Shown in pieces: positions 6,437 through 59,340 of a stretch of 64,000 bases of DNA (position 1 is its first letter; every line of letters begins with the position of its first letter). Origin of the DNA: Clostridia bacterium. Lineage in GTDB: Bacteria > Bacillota > Clostridia > Oscillospirales > CAG-272. The notes beneath the pieces were generated by a model. The model had not been told where the DNA came from, searched no databases, and saw only the letters and a list, made by a program, of their open reading frames with translations. The position numbers were made by a program, and so were the translations under genes. The stretch spans positions 3,342 through 67,341 of the forward strand of contig JAFUMU010000083.1 of assembly GCA_017482495.1 (NCBI GenBank), given 5' to 3'.

Positions 6437-6495
6437 TGCAGGGAGGCTTTTTAAGGAAAAGCCCCCTGCACCCCCAAAACCTTTTCGGATAAAAT
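6437..6495 (+). repeat. Solo L module of the intergenic repeat family
   Basis: TGCAGGGAGGCTTTTTAAGGAAAAGCCCCCTGCA hairpin followed by CCCCCAAAACCTTTTCGGATAA. Same as the left ends of the copies at 27045, 37101 and 43748. Confidence 0.75.
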
Positions 6496-6575: not shown

Positions 6576-6604
6576 TTGACCAAATCAATAACATATGGTA
6601 TAAT
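6576..6604 (+). promoter_or_regulatory. Sigma-A type promoter
   Basis: TTGACC (6576-6581), 17 bp spacer, TATAAT (6599-6604). Confidence 0.7.
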
Positions 6605-6610
6605 ATTACG

Positions 6611-6682
6611 ACTGAACAGGCAGCGGCAAGTCCGCGAAGCCGGGTCTTACAAGACAACAGATACGCATCTGTGGGACAGTAC
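6611..6682 (+). promoter_or_regulatory. NiCo (czcD-type) riboswitch aptamer
   Basis: ACUGAACAGGCA..GAAGCCGGGUC..GACAACAGAU..AUCUGUGGGACAGU matches my recollection of the conserved NiCo junction nucleotides. P1 is ACUG/CAGU and three hairpins lie inside. It sits upstream of a CDF transporter. Confidence 0.7.
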
Positions 6683-6726: not shown

Positions 6727-7842
6727 TTGAAAAAAGAGATAAACAGATCGAAAATAGGGCAGATATCCGGAATAATCGGAATAATATGCAACTGCGTTCT
6801 TTCTGCAACCAAAATATTCGCAGGAGCCGTTTCAGGTTCCCTGTCAGTTACAGCAGACGGATTAAACAATCTCAGCGATGCCGCAAGCTCCGTCGTCGCC
6901 TTTCTCGGTTACAGGCTGTCCGAAAAGCCCGCAGACAAGAAGCATCCCTTCGGACACGCAAGAATAGAGTATCTTGCCAATCTGACGGTTGCAACCCTTA
7001 TGCTTTTTATGGGATTTGAGCTTACGAAATCATCCGTTATAAAAATGATCTCCACCGAAAAAGCCTCATTTTCCGTCCTCACCTTCATCATCCTTGCCAT
7101 ATCCATAGCAGTAAAGATATTTATGATGCTGTTCAACAGGCATATGGGCAAAAAGATATCTTCAGCTACACTTATGGCGGTTGCCGCAGACAGCAGAAAC
7201 GATGCCATAGCAACAACCGTTGTTGCCCTTTCAGCCGCAACCGAATATTTTTTCAACATCAAAGTCGACGGTATAGCAGGACTTCTTCTGGCATTATTCA
7301 TACTTTACAGCGGAATAATCACGGCCAAGGGCGCCGTCTCCACTCTTTTGGGCGAGGGCGGGTCGCCGAAGCTGAAAAACGAAATAACAGCTCTTATCCT
7401 CTCAAACAATGATATCATAGGATGCCACGACCTTATAGTACACGACTACGGGCCCGAAAAAATATACGCCAGCATCCACGTTGAGATGAACAAAAACGCC
7501 ACTCCTATGTACAGCCACAGAATAATCGATCTTCTTGAGAGGAAATGTCTTAAGCGCCTCGGTGTGCATCTGGTCATCCACCACGATCCCGTTGCAACCG
7601 ACGATCCGGGGGAAAATCAGATCCGACAAGCAATAGAAGATTTTTTATCGGAAAGAGACCCTCGGCTAAAATTCCACGATCTTCGCATAGTTGAGCGAAA
7701 TACCGCAACTCTTCTCTATTTCGACATAGAGATCCCCGAAGAAATCTTCGGTGAGCGGCACAGCATTGCTCTTGAGCTTGAATCACATCTGAACGAAAGC
7801 CTCAGCCGCCGCTTCATACTGAATATTACCTACGACATTTAA
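6727..7842 (+). CDS. Cation diffusion facilitator (CDF) family metal exporter
   Basis: TTG start 6 nt after GGGAGG. Contains SLSVTADGLNNLSDAASS and KKHPFGHARIEYL motifs, six TM helices and a cytoplasmic C-terminal domain. Confidence 0.9.
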   Translation: MKKEINRSKIGQISGIIGIICNCVLSATKIFAGAVSGSLSVTADGLNNLSDAASSVVAFLGYRLSEKPADKKHPFGHARIEYLANLTVATLMLFMGFELTKSSVIKMISTEKASFSVLTFIILAISIAVKIFMMLFNRHMGKKISSATLMAVAADSRNDAIATTVVALSAATEYFFNIKVDGIAGLLLALFILYSGIITAKGAVSTLLGEGGSPKLKNEITALILSNNDIIGCHDLIVHDYGPEKIYASIHVEMNKNATPMYSHRIIDLLERKCLKRLGVHLVIHHDPVATDDPGENQIRQAIEDFLSERDPRLKFHDLRIVERNTATLLYFDIEIPEEIFGERHSIALELESHLNESLSRRFILNITYDI

Positions 7843-13161: not shown

Positions 13162-14304
13162 ATGACTAAGATAGATATTTTCTCAGGCTTTCTCGGAGCA
13201 GGCAAGACCACTCTTATAAAGAAGCTTATTTCCGAAGCATACAAGGGCGAAAAGCTTGTTCTTATTGAAAACGAATTTGGTGAGATCGGCGTTGACGCAG
13301 GATTTCTTACCGACGCAGGTATCAACATCACAGAAATGAACTCAGGATGTATATGCTGCTCTCTTGTGGGAGACTTCAGTCAGGCACTTAAAAAGGTCAT
13401 AGCAGAATATGCTCCCGACAGGATCCTCATCGAACCCTCCGGAGTCGGCAAGCTTTCCGACGTTATGGCGGCTGTTAAGGGTAGCGCAGAGGGTGCGGAG
13501 CTTTCTGCGGCGGTAACAGTTGTTGACGCTAAAAAATGCAGAATGTATATGAAGAATTTCGGTGAATTTTTCAACAATCAGGTTGAAAATGCAACCACCA
13601 TCGTCCTCAGCCATACCAAGGGACTTTCAGAGGATAAGCTGAACCGTGCAATAGAAATGATCAGAGAGCACAATGCAAAGGCAAGCCTTGTTACAACTGA
13701 GTGGGACGAAATAAGCGGCGCTGATATTCTATCTGTTATTGACGGCACAGATTCCCTTGAAGCAGAGCTTCACAAGCTGGAGGAGGAGGCTGTTTGTCCC
13801 GAATGCGGTCACCATCACGGCCCTCATCATCACCACGATGAAAGCTGCGACTGTCACGAGCATCATCACGACCATCACCATCACGATGAGGGCTGCGACT
13901 GTCATGAGCATCATCACGACCATCACCACCACGATGAGGGCTGCGACTGTCATGAGCATGAACATCATCACCATCATCATGACGAAGAATGCTCCTGCGG
14001 ATGCGGCGGTCACGGTCACCATCATCACCATGCAGACGAGGTGTTCTCAAGCTGGGGAATGGACGGCACACGCAAGTATACAAAAGAAGAGATCGAAAAA
14101 GCTCTTCACGAGATAGAAAACGAAGAAAAATACGGTATGGTTCTCAGAGCTAAGGGGATAGTTCCCTCCGACGGCTGCTTTATCCACTTCGACTATACCC
14201 CCGGCGAAGCAGATATAAGAGAGGGCAGTGCAGTTGCCGCAGGCAGACTTTGCGTTATCGGCTCAAATATCAAGGAAGATGCTCTGAGAGAGCTCTTTGC
14301 ATAA
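13162..14304 (+). CDS. COG0523 (CobW/HypB/UreG, G3E) GTPase metallochaperone with His/Cys-rich insert
   Basis: Walker A GFLGAGKTT, CxCC motif GCICCS and an EPSGVG switch. Carries a long HHHH/CDCHEHHH insert before the CobW C-terminal domain. Confidence 0.9.
   Translation: MTKIDIFSGFLGAGKTTLIKKLISEAYKGEKLVLIENEFGEIGVDAGFLTDAGINITEMNSGCICCSLVGDFSQALKKVIAEYAPDRILIEPSGVGKLSDVMAAVKGSAEGAELSAAVTVVDAKKCRMYMKNFGEFFNNQVENATTIVLSHTKGLSEDKLNRAIEMIREHNAKASLVTTEWDEISGADILSVIDGTDSLEAELHKLEEEAVCPECGHHHGPHHHHDESCDCHEHHHDHHHHDEGCDCHEHHHDHHHHDEGCDCHEHEHHHHHHDEECSCGCGGHGHHHHHADEVFSSWGMDGTRKYTKEEIEKALHEIENEEKYGMVLRAKGIVPSDGCFIHFDYTPGEADIREGSAVAAGRLCVIGSNIKEDALRELFA
13837..13980 (+). repeat. In-frame 48-bp tandem repeat (3 units) coding DE[SG]CDCHEH[HE]H[DH]HHHH
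   Basis: Three consecutive near-identical 48-nt units are visible in the DNA and the protein. A fourth, degenerate unit (DEECSCGCGGHGHHHHH) follows. Confidence 0.85.
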
Positions 14305-18177: not shown

Positions 18178-18676
18178 AAGGGGGGACCTCTCTTTCGGAG
18201 AGCGGTCCCCCTTTTTTTATATGGGGGAACCTCTCTTTCGCAGAGAGGCTTCCCCCAAGCCCCCTCCAGAGAACCTATAACAAGGGTAAATGTTATTAGG
18301 TGCGCTGTATTTCGCGCATTCCCGCCGAGAGCTTTTTCGGTGGAACCTCTCTTTCGCAGAGAGGCTTCCCCCGTACCCCCTCCAGAGAACTTTGAATAAA
18401 GGTGAACGTAATATGATGCGCTGAACGAACGCGTCTTCCCGCCCCAATGCTGTGCATTGGGGATAAGGAAAAGAAAAGGATATTGAAAAAGGAAGCTCGT
18501 TTCCTTTTTCAATATTCTTTTGCTTTTCCGGGCGACCTGCGGTCGCTTACGGGAAGACTAACCTAACTTACGGTGCTCAGAATCCCATTTAGCCTTAGAA
18601 CATCGTAACCACCAAAATAAGCGTTATCTTAAAAGGTTTGGGGGCGTGGGGGCCTTTCCTTAAAAGGCGCCCCACA
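18178..18676 (-). repeat. Intergenic modular repeat, inverted orientation, with duplicated R module
   Basis: Reverse complement of the 27045 and 37101 copies. On the + strand it reads three GGGGGA.CTCTCTTTCG.AGAGAG..CCCCC hairpins, two R modules, the core (GTCTTCCCG...CGGGAAGAC) and the L hairpin at 18645-18675. Confidence 0.85.
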
Positions 18677-27012: not shown

Positions 27013-27037
27013 GGGGACTTTTAGTAAGTCCCCTTTT
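27013..27037 (+). terminator. Intrinsic terminator
   Basis: GGGGACTTTTAGTAAGTCCCC followed by a T-run. Confidence 0.7.
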
Positions 27038-27044
27038 GTTTTTT

Positions 27045-27380
27045 GCGGAGGACCTTTTAAGGAAAGGTCCCCCTCGCCCCTCCAAACCTTTTAGTGAAAC
27101 GCTTATTTTGGTGCCTGTGATATTATTCAGCTAAATGGGATTCGGAGCAGATTGCTGTATAAGTCTTCCCGTATGCGACCGCAGGTCGCCGGGAAAAGCA
27201 AAAGGATATAAAAAAAGGAAACGAGCTTCCTTTTTTTATATCCTTTTCTTTTCCTAATCCCAAATGCACAGCATTTGGGCGGGAAGACGCGACATTCAGC
27301 GCATCATATTACATTCACCCTTATTCAAAGTTCTCTGGGGGAGCACGAGGGGGACTCTCTCCGAAAGAGAGTCCCCCTCG
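27045..27380 (+). repeat. Intergenic modular repeat, single-unit copy (L - core - R)
   Basis: L hairpin 27045-27077. Closing helix GTCTTCCCG (27163-27171) / CGGGAAGAC (27280-27288) encloses three hairpins. R module ends with hairpin 27346-27380. Confidence 0.85.
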
Positions 27381-27404
27381 TAAATCATAAAATTCTAAAC
27401 CAAA

Positions 27405-34777: not shown

Positions 34778-35022
34778 TCGGATAATTTTTTTAAAGGAGT
34801 TCTTCATATACGTGAGAGCTCCTTTTTAGATTGTCGAAAAAAGAAGGTCGGATGAGACCATAGAGAACAGGCGGATAAAATGAAATCACACAGCGGCGTC
34901 ATGGCTTTCTCTGCGGATATTTGGAAAACATATTGCCAAAATTCAGCAAAACAATAATATTGAATGTGGAGATCATATATGATAGAATTATAGTAACAAG
35001 CTTACGAAAAGAGAATGATGAT

Positions 35023-35811
35023 ATGTTCACCTACAAAAAAGGAATATGGCAATCGGACATACTGAATATGAAAGGAATAAGTCATGGATTTTCCACACGT
35101 CTCGGCGGAAAAAGCGTACTTTCCCATACAGCATCTATGAATACGGGTTTTTTTCGCGGAGATGACGACAGCCTTGTTGTCGAAAACATCAGAGAGCTTT
35201 GCACTCTTTCCGACTCAAGCATGGATGTAGTATGCACTCCGCAAATACATTCTGATATTATCCGTTATGTTACAGAAGAAAATATAGGTGAGGGAACTGT
35301 ATGCGACGTTCCGTTTTCCTGCGACGGATTTGTAACAGACCGCCCGGGCGTAACTCTTCTTGTAAGAGTTGCCGACTGCACCCCTATACTTATGTGCGGC
35401 AAAAAGGCTGACGGATCTCCTGTTGTGGCGGCTGTCCACGCAGGATGGAAGGGCGCTGTTGCGGGAATAGGATCCAATGCTGTTCAAAAAATGCGAGAGC
35501 TTGGTGCTGACAATATACACTGTGCCATCGGAGCCTGTATACACAAATGTTGTTTTCAGGTGGGGGAGGATTTCATAGAGTCGGTAAAAACGGCAAGAGG
35601 AGCTGATTTTGCAAGTGAATATATTGAGCATCGAAACGGCTCATATTATGCAGATCTGCCCGGTATGAATGCAAACATCCTTCGCAGCGCAGGCATTGAT
35701 CAGATCGATATTATCGACGAATGTACACTTTGTAAGCCGTATCTCTACCATTCCCACAGAGCGACAGGCGGCAAGCGCGGCACCATGGGTGCAGTTATTT
35801 GTATTAACTGA
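35023..35811 (+). CDS. pgeF: Peptidoglycan editing factor PgeF (YfiH / laccase-domain family)
   Basis: Trimmed to MFTYKK. Contains HGFSTRLGG, QIHSD, VRVADCTPIL, HAGWKG and SHR motifs. Confidence 0.85.
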   Translation: MFTYKKGIWQSDILNMKGISHGFSTRLGGKSVLSHTASMNTGFFRGDDDSLVVENIRELCTLSDSSMDVVCTPQIHSDIIRYVTEENIGEGTVCDVPFSCDGFVTDRPGVTLLVRVADCTPILMCGKKADGSPVVAAVHAGWKGAVAGIGSNAVQKMRELGADNIHCAIGACIHKCCFQVGEDFIESVKTARGADFASEYIEHRNGSYYADLPGMNANILRSAGIDQIDIIDECTLCKPYLYHSHRATGGKRGTMGAVICIN

Positions 35812-35824
35812 GAAATATTAAATC

Positions 35825-35853
35825 GGGGGACTTTCTTTCAGCGAAAGTCCCCC
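35825..35853. terminator. R-type hairpin acting as terminator between convergent genes
   Basis: GGGGGACTTTCTTTCAGCGAAAGTCCCCC, the same design as the terminal hairpins of the repeat family. Confidence 0.6.
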
Positions 35854-36078: not shown

Positions 36079-36097
36079 ACCATTGTAGCTACAAAAT

Positions 36098-36190
36098 TCA
36101 ATACAGGGGTGCTGTTACAGGACGGCTGAGACGGAAATTTTCCGAACCCTTTAACCTGATACGGGTAATTCCGGCGTAGGGAGCATTGTT
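36098..36190 (+). promoter_or_regulatory. TPP (THI-box) riboswitch
   Basis: CAGGGGUGC...GGCUGAGA...ACCCUUUAACCUGAUACGGGUAAUUCCGGCGUAGGGAGC matches the TPP aptamer consensus. Confidence 0.9.
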
Positions 36191-36223
36191 TTAAGGCACT
36201 ATTATATTATTTTGCTTTTTACT

Positions 36224-36251
36224 ACACCCTGCCGAGAGCAGGGTGTTTTTT
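36224..36251 (+). terminator. Riboswitch terminator
   Basis: ACACCCTGC-CGAGA-GCAGGGTGT followed by a T-run. Confidence 0.8.
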
Positions 36252-36291
36252 GCTCTTATATTTCGGAAACGAAAGGAGTAATTATTTTAAA

Positions 36292-37086
36292 ATGAAAAAA
36301 AATTTAGCACTTAAACTTACGGAAAGCGCAATGATGATCGCGCTGGCTACCATTCTCAGCTTTATCAAGCTGGCAAATCTGCCTTACGGCGGCAGTATAA
36401 CTATCGCATCTATGCTGCCAATACTTATTATCGCCGTTCGCTACGGCACACCGTGGGGTCTTTTCACAGGACTTGTCCACGGAACCCTGCAGCTTATAAT
36501 TGATCCCGGACCTCTCAGCTACTTCTCTGACGGGCTGAGCGTTGCGGCAATAATTGTGCTTGACTATATTCTCGCCTTCAGCCTTATAGGCTTAGGAGGA
36601 CTTGCCGGAAAAGCCAAAGCTCCCACTGTTTCACTTAGCATAGGAGCACTTATCGCAGGTGTGCTTCGCTATCTGTGTCACGTGGTATCAGGTGCAACAG
36701 TTTGGGCGGGACTCTCTATTCCCACCTCCGCCGCACTTGCTTATTCCTTCGTCTACAATGCAACATATATGCTTCCCGAAACACTTATCCTCATTATATC
36801 AGCATATTTTATCGCTTCATCTGTGAACTTCCGTTCTCAGCGCCTCGCTCCTGCAAAGCGCGGCGATAAAAAGGTCTCCGTTTTCTCTGTTTTAGGATTG
36901 GCATTTTTCTCCGGCGGACTTATCTTTGACATTGCTTCAGTATTCTCTAAGCTGCAAAACGGAGAAACAGGTGAGTTCGATATCACAGGCATCGCTTCTG
37001 TTAACTGGATCCTCGTTCTTGCTGTAACCGCTGTCTGCTTCGCCCTCGGTGCAGTTATGCTCCTTGTGGCAAAGAGGAAGAAATAA
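36292..37086 (+). CDS. thiT: ECF-type thiamine transporter S component ThiT with C-terminal extension
   Basis: Trimmed to MKKNLALKLTESAMMIALATILSF. Has a ThiT-like six-TM core downstream of the TPP riboswitch and about 80 extra C-terminal residues with two further hydrophobic helices. Confidence 0.7.
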   Translation: MKKNLALKLTESAMMIALATILSFIKLANLPYGGSITIASMLPILIIAVRYGTPWGLFTGLVHGTLQLIIDPGPLSYFSDGLSVAAIIVLDYILAFSLIGLGGLAGKAKAPTVSLSIGALIAGVLRYLCHVVSGATVWAGLSIPTSAALAYSFVYNATYMLPETLILIISAYFIASSVNFRSQRLAPAKRGDKKVSVFSVLGLAFFSGGLIFDIASVFSKLQNGETGEFDITGIASVNWILVLAVTAVCFALGAVMLLVAKRKK

Positions 37087-37100
37087 TTTGAGGATTTTAT

Positions 37101-37608
37101 GCAAGGGGGATTTTAAGGAAATCCCCCCTGCACCCCCAAACCTTTTCGGATAACGCATGATTTGGTGGCTACGATATTCTATATCTAAACGGGATTCGGA
37201 GCAGTATAAGGTAGGTTAGTCTTCCCGTATGCGACCGTAGGTCGCTCGGAAAATTAAAAGGATATTGAAAAAGGAAACAAGCTTCCTTTTTCAATATCCT
37301 TTTCTTTTCCTTAACCCAAATGCAATAGCATTTGGGCGGGAAGACGCGCCCGTTCAGCGCACAATATTACATTCACCCCTATTCAAAGTTCTCTGGAAAG
37401 GGGTACGGGGGAGAACCTCTCTGCGAAAGAGAGGTTTCCCCCGAAAAAGCTTCGTGCGGGAATGCGCGAAATTCAGCGCACCTTATAAAGTTCACCCTTA
37501 TTCAAAGTTCTCTGAAAGGGGCGGCCGGGGTTCCCCAATGCGAGCTTGCCGAGCCTTGGGGGTTCACGGTACGGGGGAATCTCTCTCCGAAAGAGAGATT
37601 CCCCCCGC
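37101..37608 (+). repeat. Intergenic modular repeat, copy with duplicated R module
   Basis: L hairpin 37101-37131. Closing helix 37219-37227 / 37337-37345. First R module ends with hairpin 37407-37442; second R module ends with hairpin 37573-37607. Confidence 0.85.
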
Positions 37609-37624
37609 ATTAATTCACACATAA

Positions 37625-38263
37625 TTAAATTAACTCAGCGATGTCAATGTTTTCACCAATGAGACCGACATAAGCGCCGTCGGAAGCCTCAGAGGAATCG
37701 GGATGAGCCAGGAGCCATTTGTTTCTTGCACGAAGGAGAGTGTCTTCAAAGTTTCTGGGCTCGAAAACAGGCTTGTCTGTGTTTGTACCCTTGGGGAGCG
37801 CAATAAGAACCTTAAAACCCTTGCTTGCATCTGCGTGGCAGGGGGCATAGTGAAGAGTTGTAGCATAGCACTCAACCATAACGCCTGCAGGAGCACGGAA
37901 AGCCTTGACCTTTGCTGTATCCAGCTTGCCGTCTTCTATCTCGTCCTGCTTGGCAACAAGGAGGATAAAATCCTCACATCCAAGATTAAACTCGCTGTCT
38001 CTGTGATATTCAAGGCAGTTGAGACGGGTGTTGTGGCCGTTGCACCAGCCCATCTGAACGGGCATGCCGCCATAGAGATGCTCAGAAACCTCAACTGTTG
38101 CCGGAAGCTCCTGCAGAGCCTCGTCCTCCGCAGTATATTCCACGCCCTCGGGAAGAGGTGTTCTTGAGAGAGCGCCAAGAATTTCGGAAACAGCCTCATC
38201 AAGACCGGAGACAACCTTGCCGTAGGAGGCAAATTCTTTATCATATACTGAATAGATCTTCAT
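37625..38263 (-). CDS. DUF4867-like cupin-fold protein
   Basis: Trimmed to MKIYSVYDKEF after GGAAGGA. Family call from memory (GWCNGHNTRLNCLEYHRDSEF). Confidence 0.65.
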   Translation of the reverse strand: MKIYSVYDKEFASYGKVVSGLDEAVSEILGALSRTPLPEGVEYTAEDEALQELPATVEVSEHLYGGMPVQMGWCNGHNTRLNCLEYHRDSEFNLGCEDFILLVAKQDEIEDGKLDTAKVKAFRAPAGVMVECYATTLHYAPCHADASKGFKVLIALPKGTNTDKPVFEPRNFEDTLLRARNKWLLAHPDSSEASDGAYVGLIGENIDIAELI

Positions 38264-40025: not shown

Positions 40026-40227
40026 AGCGAAGACTGTATATCATAAAACGTGAATCTGCGGCAAGCCGCAGTGAAATTTGGGCTATCGCTCAAGTGAAGT
40101 ATTGCACCTGCGATGCAATATGAAGTTAATGTTCCAACTATCGTGCCGAAGGCATATATAATCGCTCGCAGAACGATATCATATCGAAGATATATCACCC
40201 GTTCCGCAGGGAACGGGTATCATTGAA

Positions 40228-40260: not shown

Positions 40261-40351
40261 TGGCGGAGAAGGAGAGATTCGAACTCTCGAACCCTTTTAC
40301 AGGTTACACGATTTCCAATCGTGCGCGCTCGACCAGCTACGCGACTTCTCC
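40261..40351 (-). tRNA. tRNA-Ser (anticodon GGA), CCA encoded
   Basis: Minus strand reads GGAGAAG..CACGA-UUGGAAA-UCGUG..long variable arm..GAGAG-UUCGAAU-CUCUC-CUUCUCC-G-CCA. The cloverleaf was folded by hand. Confidence 0.9.
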
Positions 40352-41526: not shown

Positions 41527-41760
41527 GTCGGATGATTCCGACGAAGCAGAACATGTCCGGTGAATTTCCTTTGTCAGAGAGCCGCTCCCCGTGCTGAAAG
41601 GGCGGTCAAACGAACCACTCGGGTACCATCTGCGGATATTATGAATACAAATTGAGTTAAACGCTCGGGTGGAACCGTGGGAATTTCTGTAGCAATGCAG
41701 TTTCTCACCCCGACAATCTTTTTTGTCGGCGCCGGGCTTTTTTCATTTTAACCGCGCCGA
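41527..41760 (+). promoter_or_regulatory. T-box leader (Thr specifier ACC)
   Basis: Has an AGAGA box (CAGAGAGCC), the specifier context GGUACCAUC and the T-box sequence AAACGCUCGGGUGGAACCGUGGGA. A terminator-like hairpin plus U-run follows (CCGACAA..TTGTCGG..CTTTTTT). It is upstream of thrS. Confidence 0.8.
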
Positions 41761-43725: not shown

Positions 43726-43747
43726 TAGAATAGGAATAATAAAGAAA

Positions 43748-44057
43748 GGGGGCTTTTAAGAAAAGCCCCCCCTGCCTCATGAATATACATCGACTACATT
43801 ATCGTTCAACTAAAATGAATTTCGAAGTATTAGCCGTGTTAGTCCTCCCTGCAAATCCCCTGAATAATCCGGATAATTAAAAGGAGATGGATGTAAAAAC
43901 GGAAGCTTATTTCCGTTTTTACATCCATCTCCTTTTACATTGCCGCTTTGTGGCACATGAGAAGGCGCAAGGTTCTGCGCACATATATTATTACCTTCAT
44001 TTCAGGTTCTCTGAAGGGGGCTCGTGGAGAACTCTCTGCGAAAGAGAGTTCTCCACG
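43748..44057 (+). repeat. Divergent copy of the intergenic modular repeat
   Basis: Same order of elements: L hairpin GGGGGCTTTTAAGAAAAGCCCCC, long central hairpin, GCGCA/TGCGC hairpin, TTCAGGTTCTCTGAAGGGGG, and terminal hairpin 44023-44057. Stem sequences are largely different. Confidence 0.7.
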
Positions 44058-44072
44058 AAATAACTAACCTAA

Positions 44073-47112: not shown

Positions 47113-47140
47113 AAAAAAGGATCCTTTCGGATCCTTTTTT
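47113..47140 (+). terminator. Intrinsic terminator
   Basis: AAAAAAGGATCC-TTTC-GGATCCTTTTTT. Confidence 0.8.
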
Positions 47141-47941: not shown

Positions 47942-48087
47942 GCAGGGAACCTATTAAGTATAGGTTTCCTGTCCTCAAACCTTTTGGTATAGGTGTCTTG
48001 TTGGTGTTTGCAGACATTGCTAAAAAGGTCAGAGAGACAGAGAACATAAGGTGGGGGAATCGCTCTTTTGCAGAGCGGTTCCCCCAC
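47942..48087 (+). repeat. Short form of the intergenic repeat (L module + terminal hairpin)
   Basis: GGGAACCTATTAAGTATAGGTTTCC followed by CTCAAACCTTTTGG. Ends with GTGGGGGAATCGCTCTTTTGCAGAGCGGTTCCCCCAC. Confidence 0.6.
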
Positions 48088-57651: not shown

Positions 57652-58588
57652 CGCTGTTACAGCAGACTATAAATTGACAGTTGCCTCTGACAAAGCAGGT
57701 ACGCGCCTTGATAGCTTTATTGCAGAGCATACGCCCCTGAGCCGCAGTGCGGCACAGGGGCTTCTTCCGGAAAACAAAATAACAGTTAACGGTAAATGCG
57801 TGTCAAAAAGCTGTAAGCTGAAGGCAGGAGATATCATCGAGGTATTTCTCCCCGAAGCTGAATTGTGTGAAGCAGTGCCCGAGGATATCCCCCTTGATAT
57901 CGTCTACGAGGACGATGATGTGGTGGTGATAAATAAGCCTCAGGGAATGGTTGTCCATCCCGCACCGGGACATGAAAGAGGTACACTTGTAAATGCTGTC
58001 ATGTTCCACTGCAAGGACAGCCTCTCTGATATTAACGGAGTTATCCGTCCCGGTATCGTCCATAGGATAGATCGTGACACAAGCGGACTTCTTATCGTTG
58101 CAAAAAATAACGAGGCACACCTTGCCCTTGCCGCTCAGCTTGAGGACCATTCTCTTTCCAGAGTTTACAAAACTATCCTCTGCGGAAGACTCAAGGGAGA
58201 CGGAACTGTGGACGCTCCCATCGGACGCCATAAAACTGACAGAAAGAAAATGGCAATATCCCCCGACGGCAGACGCGCCGTCACTCACTATAAGCAGATT
58301 TGCGAGCTGGAGGGAGGCTTTTGCCTGGCGGAAATGCGTCTTGAAACAGGAAGGACCCATCAGATAAGAGTCCATATGGCACATATAGGCCACCCGGTTC
58401 TTGGCGACCCTGTGTACGGAAGACCTACCCAGTTTGAAAAAAAGCATCCGTCTCTCTTTATGGGGCAATGCCTGCACGCAGGCGAGCTTACCTTTCGCCA
58501 TCCCCGCGACGGCAGAGAGGTCACGGTCACAGCTCCCTTGCCTGAAAATTTCAAGAGAATACTGACCTTGCTTGGTTATGAGCAATAA
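57644..58588 (+). CDS. rluD: RluA-family 23S rRNA pseudouridine synthase
   Basis: S4 domain followed by HRIDRDTSGLLIVAK and GRTHQIRVH. Confidence 0.9.
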   Translation: MNNAVTADYKLTVASDKAGTRLDSFIAEHTPLSRSAAQGLLPENKITVNGKCVSKSCKLKAGDIIEVFLPEAELCEAVPEDIPLDIVYEDDDVVVINKPQGMVVHPAPGHERGTLVNAVMFHCKDSLSDINGVIRPGIVHRIDRDTSGLLIVAKNNEAHLALAAQLEDHSLSRVYKTILCGRLKGDGTVDAPIGRHKTDRKKMAISPDGRRAVTHYKQICELEGGFCLAEMRLETGRTHQIRVHMAHIGHPVLGDPVYGRPTQFEKKHPSLFMGQCLHAGELTFRHPRDGREVTVTAPLPENFKRILTLLGYEQ

Positions 58589-58626
58589 AAAATGCAGTAT
58601 CACGTTTTGTGATACTGCATTTTTTA
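58587..58626. terminator. Bidirectional intrinsic terminator
   Basis: AAAAAATGCAGTATCAC-GTTTTGT-GATACTGCATTTTTT. Confidence 0.8.
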
Positions 58627-58627
58627 T

Positions 58628-59340
58628 TTAAAGCTTGTCGAAAAACTGTTGCTTGTTTGTAACCTCTTCTGCCAAAACCGCCTGCTCCTCAGCATATACC
58701 AAAAGATCATATATGGGTCTCATTGCCAAAAAAGTCTGCCTCACCTGCTCCGCAAGATCAGGAGAAAAAAGCTGTTTTCCCGAGGGAAATACCGTAATCG
58801 AATAGTCTTCCTGTCAAGCCAAATCCGTTTATCTTCAGAATAGTGGGGATAACGGCTTCTTTTGTACATTTCTCCGTCAATGACTATTTCCTCATTTGCC
58901 ATCAAAACATCTCTTGCGCGAATATACATAGGATGGTCGGAAGCGACCATCTTTCTTATCTCCGCCATAACTGGAGTCTTCGTACAATAGTAACCGCAAC
59001 CGTAGAAAAATGTACCGGGCGAAATAATAAAATAAAATTCCGGCCACGCCTGAAAGCACTTCTTGTCACGTCTGAAAGATACCCACAGCATATCTCTGTA
59101 CAAGCTTCCTTTTGCAAAACGCGCATCTCTGTATATACGTGAGACCGTATTTCTCGGTAATGTAATTATGTGTGGATCTATGTCCTCAACAGCAGGAGCA
59201 ACATACTGAGAAAGTGCCACAAGCGGCTCTTGCACATACTTTTTATATTTATCTTTATGCTCCTCAAACCATACCTTGCTGTTCATAAAAGCATTTTCTG
59301 CTATAAAATCAAGGGTTTCGGGGTAAAAAATCGTCTTCAT
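58628..59340 (-). pseudogene. DUF2461 (TIGR02453-like) gene with frameshift at a T6 run (A6 on the + strand)
   Basis: Track ORF 58741-59340 ends as ...FPRENSFFLLILRSR*. The -1 frame continues SPDLAEQVRQTFLAMRPIYDLLVYAEEQAVLAEEVTNKQQFFDKL* and ends at 58628, next to the terminator. Confidence 0.6.

Follow-up and report, generated by a model that had tools for sequence, protein, structure and literature searches.

A mosaic family of palindromic intergenic repeats, probably acting at the DNA level, in an uncultured Clostridia bacterium

Introduction

BOX elements of the Firmicute Streptococcus pneumoniae are structured intergenic repeats with the composition boxA-boxB(n)-boxC that may be co-transcribed with neighbouring genes, and they are not known to have a transposase, to carry clear inverted repeats or to duplicate their target. 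Miniature inverted-repeat transposable elements (MITEs), such as RUP, Correia and, in the Bacillus cereus group, the repeats of bcr1 type, are non-autonomous, multi-copy intergenic sequences with long hairpins and lineage-specific expansion. What defines REP (repetitive extragenic palindromic) elements is a GT[A/G]G head joined to a palindrome (PMC3686654), REP-associated tyrosine transposases (RAYTs) of Group 1 occur in Clostridia (PMC5581495), and a 2013 survey of GTAG REPs named four bacterial groups with Firmicutes unmentioned (PMC3733652). Here we analyze a family of modular, hairpin-rich intergenic elements in a 64,000-nucleotide stretch of a Clostridia bacterium genome (assembly GCA_017482495.1, contig JAFUMU010000083.1, positions 3,342 to 67,341; hereafter, the window), taking the element at 37101-37608 (c37) as the reference copy.

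These elements make up a new family and not a new principle. They work like bacterial interspersed mosaic elements (BIMEs) and BOX, with REP-built E. coli BIMEs and pneumococcal BOX as their nearest analogues. As in the REP, BIME and REPIN systems of E. coli, Pseudomonas and Stenotrophomonas, GC-clamped intergenic palindromes lie at gene ends and are assembled into mosaics with conserved linkers, the family is species-specific, and neither terminal inverted repeats nor target duplications are seen. They differ in the size of the composite (340-510 nt), in the possession of a 127-nt four-helix core and in their long conserved unpaired segments. The likeness to BOX, in which a fixed 5' module, a variable-number module and a 3' module follow one another, is one of modularity style only, and sequence similarity is not expected in a different class of Firmicutes; BOX is shorter and lacks the four-way-junction core, and the variable-copy module is here the one designated R (one or two units). 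MITEs differ in that whole-element terminal inverted repeats, target duplication and a parent insertion sequence were not seen here, only the core having 9-bp inverted termini. An earlier note on this DNA had been reminded of BOX/BIME-type mosaic repeats or MITEs; the former comparison stands, whereas the latter fails on the missing terminal inverted repeats, with no target duplication seen either. Taken as a whole, the evidence makes it reasonably probable that the elements are a non-coding, non-autonomous mosaic family that is built from palindromic DNA modules, belongs to the REP/BIME or BOX kind and acts at the DNA level.

A modular repeat family in the window

Modules were searched for within the window with one nhmmer profile per module and, for the core, also with a covariance model. 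The full composite, made up of an L hairpin, a linker, a four-helix core, an R module and a terminal hairpin, is present at three loci (c18, c27 and c37), and the profiles identify L at six loci, the linker at three, the core at four and six units of R. Repeat searches recovered an inverted match of 220 nt at 83% identity between 18453-18672 and 37105-37324, a match of 130 nt at 92% between 18430-18559 and 27162-27291, and a direct match of 107 nt at 89% between 27162-27268 and 37218-37324. Identity across these unlinked loci amounts to 80-92% over 130-410 nt, non-hairpin linkers included. The R 24-mer TTCACCCTTATTCAAAGTTCTCTG occurs four times in the window at no more than one mismatch (0.00 expected), and the hairpin 17-mer CTCTCTSCGAAAGAGAG eight times (0.02 expected), with seven of the eight occurrences inside elements. 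Module motif counts far above chance confirm that the repeat family is real and modular.

The earlier note had described the same composite at six loci, five of them between convergent genes, in both orientations and with a duplicated R module in c37. Its motifs are all present where it placed them, but the six loci resolve into three full copies, one diverged copy (c43), a locus holding only L (c6, 6437-6485) and a fragment (c47, 47942-48087). Orientation does vary, c18 lying on the minus strand and reversed relative to c27 and c37 on the plus strand. The R duplication is real and extends to c18, both copies carrying an R2 subtype that starts with GCGGGAATGCGCGAAAT. The note's solo R-type hairpin at 35825-35853 exists as a hairpin, yet its relatedness to R is marginal (nhmmer E = 0.0097). 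The features of the window copies are as follows.

37100-37132, + strand: L hairpin of c37, TGCAAGGGGGATTT-TAAGG-AAATCCCCCCTGCA, GC-clamped, with an invariant loop (TTTTAAGGAAA) and a stem that covaries between copies
37133-37146, + strand: C-rich tract of c37 ending in AAACCTTTT, part of the L module, 95% conserved
37147-37218, + strand: linker of c37, 72 nt, holding the conserved block CTAAAYGGGATTCGGAGCA
37219-37345, + strand: core of c37, 127 nt, helix P1 enclosing hairpins P2, P3 and P4
37219-27 with 37337-45, + strand: P1 of c37, 9 bp, GTCTTCCCG with CGGGAAGAC
37231-45, + strand: P2 of c37, GCGACC-gta-GGTCGC
37248-37310, + strand: P3 of c37, AT-rich 21-bp stem with a 6-bp A/T extension, GGAAAA/TTTTCC
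37315-36, + strand: P4 of c37, CCCAAATGC/GCATTTGGG
37346-37396, + strand: R1 of c37, a weak GCGC hairpin (37346-60) and then a conserved unpaired 35-mer ending in GTTCTCTGG
37406-37443, + strand: terminal-type hairpin 1 of c37, CGGGGGAGAACCTCTCT-GCGAA-AGAGAGGTTTCCCCCG (GGGGGA-CTCTCT-GCGAA-AGAGAG-TCCCCC)
37444-37515, + strand: R2 of c37, distinct subtype starting with GCGGGAATGCGCGAAAT, also in c18 and in contig L122
37516-37567, + strand: insert module of c37, 52 nt, GGCGGCCGGGGTTCCCCAATGCGAGCTTGCCGAGCCTTGGGGGTTCACG
37572-37607, + strand: terminal hairpin 2 of c37, with 17 nt between its end and the stop codon of the DUF4867 gene, which is convergent
27045-27381, + strand: c27, full short-form copy with one R unit (L 27045-77; C-rich tract and AAACCTTTT 27078-92; linker 27093-27162; core 27163-27288; R 27289-27344; terminal hairpin 27345-81)
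18180-18675, - strand: c18, full long-form copy with two R units and an extra hairpin (L 18646-75; core 18433-18558; R1 hairpin 18338-73; R2 hairpin 18222-57)
18180-18211, with tail to 18218: extra R-type hairpin of c18 with a T7 tail, predicted tpiA terminator on the + strand
43746-44058, + strand: c43, diverged copy in which the GCGACC hairpin and the CCCAAATGC hairpin are missing (L 43748-70; core 43842-43966, probably inverted; P3 43878-43937, a perfect 27 bp; R 43958-44021; terminal hairpin 44022-58)
47942-48087, + strand: c47, fragment (L hairpin 47942-72; CCTCAAACCTTTT 47973-85; then a unique spacer, about 65 nt long)
48051-87, + strand: R-type hairpin of c47, with its loop in reversed orientation
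6437-6485, + strand: c6, L module on its own (hairpin 6437-70 and CCCCCAAAACCTTTT)
35825-35853, + strand: solo hairpin GGGGGAC...GTCCCCC after the gene at 34921-35811, marginally akin to R hairpins

Every one of the six loci per 64 kb is intergenic, and no further copies are present in the 12.6 kb that flank the window ends. The gene pairs bear out the placement of five loci between convergent genes: tpiA and an unknown gene, an HD-protein and a pyrophosphatase gene, ThiT and DUF4867, thrS and a gltA-like gene, and a Zn-ribbon protein gene and cysK. The neighbours are all housekeeping genes (tpiA, HD-domain protein, membrane pyrophosphatase, ThiT, thrS, gltA-like oxidoreductase, cysK). The rule that L comes after a same-strand stop codon follows automatically from any position between convergent genes. 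Three contexts are co-directional, c6 and two on further contigs (L121 and L122, below), and there the element is oriented as the adjacent gene is, which is the upstream gene at c6 and the downstream gene at L121 and L122. The c6 module follows the stop codon of its co-directional gene and precedes a NiCo riboswitch.

Further copies and lineage distribution

Four more copies were obtained from metagenome contigs. L119 carries, at the c27 locus, a variant that differs from c27; L121 contains the 3' end of a core plus R, upstream of a response-regulator gene; L122 differs in P1 and P3 and has the same insert module as c37; and L139 is a fourth close, full, short-form copy. L122 (P0001) and L139 (P0122) were recovered with the translated spurious open reading frame of the element as protein query, which gave no others. 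The first 33 nt of L122 look like an Illumina adapter (...CCCTACACGACGCTCTTCCGATCT), which suggests untrimmed contamination in a public assembly. A metagenome scan with the R-plus-hairpin pattern returned one 1-kb contig, the R 24-mer matched nothing in metagenomes, a viral scan gave no hit, and the pattern GTCTTCCCG-N(95-125)-CGGGAAGAC hit at least 118 chance loci in genome contigs; among the matches listed, none has the element and only L080 and L086 contain a genuine repeat, an unrelated MITE.

The linker-core-R unit is confined to one species-level lineage, an uncultured Oscillospiraceae-like Clostridia bacterium. In about 115 kb of sister taxa, whose threonyl-tRNA synthetases (ThrRS) are 88-95% identical, neither nhmmer nor the core covariance model detected a significant linker, core or R, the best core-model match having an E-value of about 0.05. 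L modules are present there, twice in L132 and as analogous hairpins after thrS in L129 and L130. Because the sister taxa carry L modules only, linker-core-R appears to be young and lineage-restricted, and L older. The c37 insert GGCGGCCGGGGTTCCCCAATGCGAGCTTGCCGAGCCTTGGGGGTTCACG, also carried by L122, recurs in diverged form at 13903-13945 of the sister-species contig L124, within a hairpin-rich intergenic mosaic (13690-13990) where it is flanked by repeated GGGGTTCACGC. ThrRS relatives at 75-80% identity are labelled Ruminococcaceae/Oscillospiraceae, contigs with identical proteins are metagenome records labelled XIEF21-1, and the record labels suggest the ruminant gut as the habitat of the copy-bearing contigs.

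In agreement with the earlier note, which could match the sequence to no named family, an Rfam scan of the window at gathering thresholds (4227 families) reported TPP, NiCo, tRNA and Gut-1 only, and an E-value scan of 37080-37630 yielded sub-threshold hairpin look-alikes, chance matches of which the best reached 28 bits against a gathering score of 90. The cmscan match to a described family that the note had named as grounds for abandoning its view was found neither in the window element nor in L119, L121, L122 or L139, and plasmid and phage collections held no match to the element. Near-identical strains carry identical elements, with no variation inside elements between them.

Covariation and strand symmetry

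All local helices stay paired through compensatory changes between copies. In the L hairpin, nine of 13 pairs have changed on both sides while 89.7% of cells are paired, a score that 0 of 500 shuffles reached and of which slid controls fell far short. P1 changes from GTCTTCCC/GGGAAGAC to GCATTCCC/GGGAATGC in L122, P2 reads GCGACT/AGTCGC in L119, and P4 reads CCCCAATGC/GCATTGGGG in c18. Conservation in the four close copies is patchy: it is complete in the L loop and in P1 (100% each), 97% in P2, 95% in the C-rich tract with AAACCTTTT and 90% in the unpaired R 35-mer, and weak in the L stems (48-59%, compensated) and in parts of the linker (62-71%). Because its loop is invariant while its stem covaries, the L hairpin is presumably recognized by some partner.

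Compensatory changes of this kind would also be expected from palindromic DNA sites recognized as hairpins, and the two strands of the elements are structurally equivalent. Folding of 25 hairpin and core segments gave -813.6 kcal/mol with 23 G-U among 536 pairs on the forward strand and -810.9 kcal/mol with 21 among 532 on the reverse strand (about 4% G-U). By comparison, five known RNAs of the window gave -153.1 kcal/mol with 21 G-U among 157 pairs (13%) in sense and -127.0 kcal/mol with 8 among 141 in antisense, the sense strand being the more stable in all five. Consensus folding energies for the two strands of the element were -127.6 and -131.8 kcal/mol, and the core covariance model also scores the reverse strand, at 63-64 bits. 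The earlier note had seen in the core the look of a folded RNA rather than that of a simple terminator, a view left unsupported by the equal stability of the strands, the G-U fraction, the reverse-strand core scores and the failure of long-range helices.

Several candidate features were examined and set aside. The long-range linker-R helices and the loop-linker pairing (AAAYG with CRUU, seemingly covarying) proposed by RNAalifold show arm complementarity at the level of shuffles and are broken in L139. For a pseudoknot between AAGG of the L loop and a downstream CCTT, one pair changes on both sides in one sequence and the other three vary by unpaired cells only. A small open reading frame of 20 codons in the linker is common to c37 and c18, but c18 offers it no start codon, and in c27 and L119 the frame is interrupted. 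As for the R 35-mer acting as a promoter, no sigma-70-like site is predicted in it.

These data bear directly on a second explanation, in which the elements are a structured RNA family of about 230-350 nt, borne in 3' untranslated regions (3'-UTRs) or independent, with the core as scaffold and the L loop, the C-rich tract and the R 35-mer as recognition or seed sequences. We regard it as unlikely. Compensation in every local helix, the nine changed L pairs and the P1 change in L122 included, is what such an RNA would show, as are fold z-scores of about -11, but the absence of strand asymmetry and the low G-U fraction are unlike the control RNAs, and the core model's match to the reverse strand, together with one core apparently inverted relative to its flanks, is at odds with a single functional strand. 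Invariant loops and the 90% conserved unpaired segment would suit an RNA, whereas the helices that would join its parts over a distance stay at chance level and fail in L139. The orientation of the c6, L121 and L122 elements with the adjacent gene and the greater frequency of G-U pairs on the forward strand of the insert module also favor an RNA, against which stand the lack of any sigma-70-like promoter predicted within elements (scans of c18, c27 and c37), the position of two copies downstream of canonical terminators, the lack of an Rfam match and the existence of sister species without the family. Strand symmetry, failed long-range helices, no predicted promoter and two copies beyond terminators therefore leave a reading of the compensatory changes as evidence of RNA unsupported. 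A related idea, that linker-core-R is transcribed into a structured RNA, about 230-350 nt long and carried by a mobile element, which could be either a guide or scaffold RNA for an enzyme encoded by a transposon or a 3'-UTR regulator and would form a class missing from Rfam and limited to Oscillospiraceae-like Clostridia of the rumen, with the L loop, C-rich tract and R 35-nt segment as recognition sequences, strikes us as more doubtful still.

Indications of module turnover at the DNA level

Comparison among copies points to exchange of modules as DNA. Strain L119, compared with c27 at that locus, has about 99% identity in the flanking gene and 100% in the L hairpin, and falls to about 78% from the first base past the hairpin, so that linker and core appear to have been swapped at the same locus in a near-identical strain. 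L119 also has an extra 38-nt hairpin between duplicated 15-mers (TTTTGTTTTTTGCGG). In c43, the core scores better on the opposite strand, with 52 versus 35 bits under the covariance model and an alignment score of 72 versus 50, and the loop of P3 reads GCTTAT, the usual ACAAGC/ATAAGC type in reverse complement; this is suggestive, short of proof, of a core inverted relative to its flanks. P3 is a near-perfect palindrome of 21-30 bp whose inner sequence is unrelated among the c37 type, c43, L122 and L119. The number of R units and terminal hairpins varies by locus, and the insert is optional.

Comparison of left and right arms gave no evidence of terminal inverted repeats, the observed score being reached by 132 of 300 shuffles in c37, 5 of 300 in c27 and 296 of 300 in c18. 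Inspection by eye of c18, c27, c37, c43, c47, L121, L122 and L139 revealed no direct repeat indicative of target-site duplication at their outer ends, which are not defined by an empty site. Both absences are expected for hairpin-recognizing transposition by HUH enzymes. They would likewise accord with the elements being miniature IS200/IS605 derivatives, known as palindrome-associated transposable elements, in which L is the left end, the terminal hairpin the right end, and core plus R the remnant of a guide-RNA scaffold (omega or right-end RNA). This we hold to be very unlikely: the subterminal hairpins at both ends, the orientation-specific and modular make-up, the structured 230-nt segment that ends at the right-end hairpin and the solo L, as a separable end or target, all fit, but no locus carries a TnpA or TnpB gene, none of the 4227 Rfam families matches, inspection reveals no conserved 4-5-nt target 5' of L, the structure is strand-symmetric, and a tandem R duplication is unexpected for a transposon end.

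Relation to REP systems and proposed mode of propagation

Likeness to REP sequences centers on P2. Sister species have palindromes with a GTAG head (CCCGTAGGAGCGACCATCGGTCG, GTAGGGGAGACCatcGGTCTCCC), arranged in inverted doublets, and this hairpin is similar to them. GTAG-headed palindromes, for instance GTAGGGGAGACCatcGGTCTCCCGC, are found in L126 (12245-12590), L123 (12610), L129 (5527 and 5624) and L130 (5470-5700); their forward and inverted doublets fit the published REP/REPIN definition, with true doublets seen only in L126. In the family itself, L119 alone has a variant of the P2 unit CCCGTATGCGACCgtaGGTCGC with a GTAG head (GTAGGCGACTATAGTCGCC), the terminal hairpins are headed by GTAC, GCAC or GCTC, and the GTGG that starts some L and terminal hairpins does so as part of the stem. 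The core contains no REP doublet, as its small hairpins GCGACC and CCCAAATGC differ and only the 9-nt P1 arms are inverted repeats. Because the head is degenerate, doublets are missing and the examined loci contain no RAYT, the family cannot be filed under REP/RAYT.

The modules are combined differently from locus to locus and lie in the intergenic gaps at the ends of housekeeping genes. Under the favored reading, a mosaic family of DNA palindromes, the family would have expanded recently, its copies still being exchanged or replaced. The hairpins would be kept as DNA palindromes and not as one functional RNA strand, and could be recognized, single-stranded or as cruciforms, by a trans-acting enzyme, which would allow propagation in trans. 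Given the likeness of P2 to GTAG REPs, the published REP definition and the occurrence of Group 1 RAYTs in Clostridia, our best guess at this enzyme is a RAYT or an IS200-like tyrosine (HUH) transposase, with recombination between copies possibly contributing. Copies may persist where they are least harmful, between terminators or just past them, and as a side effect the modules would probably shape transcript 3' ends.

A number of observations weigh against this reading. No transposase, RAYT or TnpB gene lies in the window or in any fetched locus, and for that reason we can only infer the mobilizing mechanism. The GT[A/G]G head is degenerate, P2 starting with GTAT, GTAA or GTGT in the window copies and likewise in L139, and at 340-510 nt the elements are much longer than typical BIMEs or BOX. 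The strains compared offer neither an empty site nor a presence/absence polymorphism. Patchy conservation, highest in the L loop (100%), AAACCTTTT (95%) and the R 35-nt segment (90%), suggests specific recognition; REPs do not usually conserve unpaired sequence, and its conservation here would suit a function as RNA or in protein binding. Finally, with about nine copies only, the statistics are weak.

If the favored reading is true, REP/BIME- or BOX-style mosaic repeats extend to uncultured rumen Clostridia, a new host group relative to the 2013 GTAG survey. The patchy conservation hints that a specific partner binds the elements. The repeats also fragment short-read assemblies of this lineage, as public metagenome contigs end within elements, either terminating in the long P3 loop (L119, L120) or starting inside the c37 element (L127). 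Among relatives whose ThrRS is 88-95% identical (L123-L126, L129-L132), each has different genes on the flanks of thrS, which indicates heavy rearrangement of gene order in the lineage, and since thrS neighbourhoods are non-syntenic among close relatives, the elements may mark rearrangement points.

Transcription signals

In c18, c27 and c37, a terminator scan scored P3 as terminator-like on both strands, and its A-tract/stem/T-tract style resembles that of native terminators of the genome, such as those at 58584-58628 and 47113-47140. On these grounds, P3 is probably a bidirectional terminator. Like bidirectional intrinsic terminators, it combines an A-tract, a long stem and a T-tract between convergent genes; it differs from them in lying inside a conserved repeat with extra helices and in its AT-rich stem, and the element's other hairpins have no T-tracts. 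By inspection, 18180-18218 comprises a hairpin and a T-tract, and this R-type hairpin should terminate tpiA. T-tracts of the terminator type are lacking in the L hairpins and in the other terminal hairpins. Two copies, c27 and L139, lie just downstream of a canonical T-tailed terminator of the upstream gene, at 27013-27033 in the case of c27, and in L139 the convergent gene, read by eye, appears to have its own terminator too.

That the elements are nothing but immobile, locally evolved terminators or 3'-end stabilizers of convergent genes, alike through gene conversion and a common terminator style, is likewise very improbable, for although P3 is terminator-like on both strands, the 18180-18218 hairpin has a T7 tail, ordinary terminators of the genome share the GGGGA...TCCCC or A-tract/T-tract style and the elements always lie at gene ends, identity of 80-92% over 130-410 nt, linkers included, cannot come from convergence, most L and terminal hairpins have no T-tract, copies sit after existing canonical terminators, and sister species have simple terminators after thrS.

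Other features of the window and related contigs

Two riboswitches neighbor the elements and reach their Rfam gathering scores: a TPP riboswitch at 36095-36199 (+), directly upstream of the gene (36250-37086) for the thiamine transporter ThiT, and the NiCo riboswitch at 6603-6681 (+), upstream of a cation-efflux gene (6727-7842). A T-box-like leader at 41532-41715 (+), upstream of thrS, scores 28 bits (E = 1.4e-4) against a gathering score of 93 and is either a divergent T-box or a weak match. A Gut-1 RNA (51.1 bits, gathering 50) adjoins tRNA-Ser(GGA), the two lying at 40151-40225 (-) and 40261-40351 (-), respectively; the window and the 15.6-kb contig L128 differ by only four single-nucleotide polymorphisms, two of which fall within Gut-1 (40197 and 40202).

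At 13800-13991, a 48-nt unit occurs three times (as overlapping 96-nt copies) and encodes a His-rich stretch in a CobW/G3E-family GTPase gene (13162-14304). An unrelated MITE-like repeat in another Clostridia metagenome-assembled genome (L080, 4330-4500; L086, 4320-4490) shares the 9-mer GTCTTCCCG with P1 and has terminal inverted repeats of about 28 nt that are themselves hairpins (TGTAGGGGAAGACATTGTCTTCCCG).

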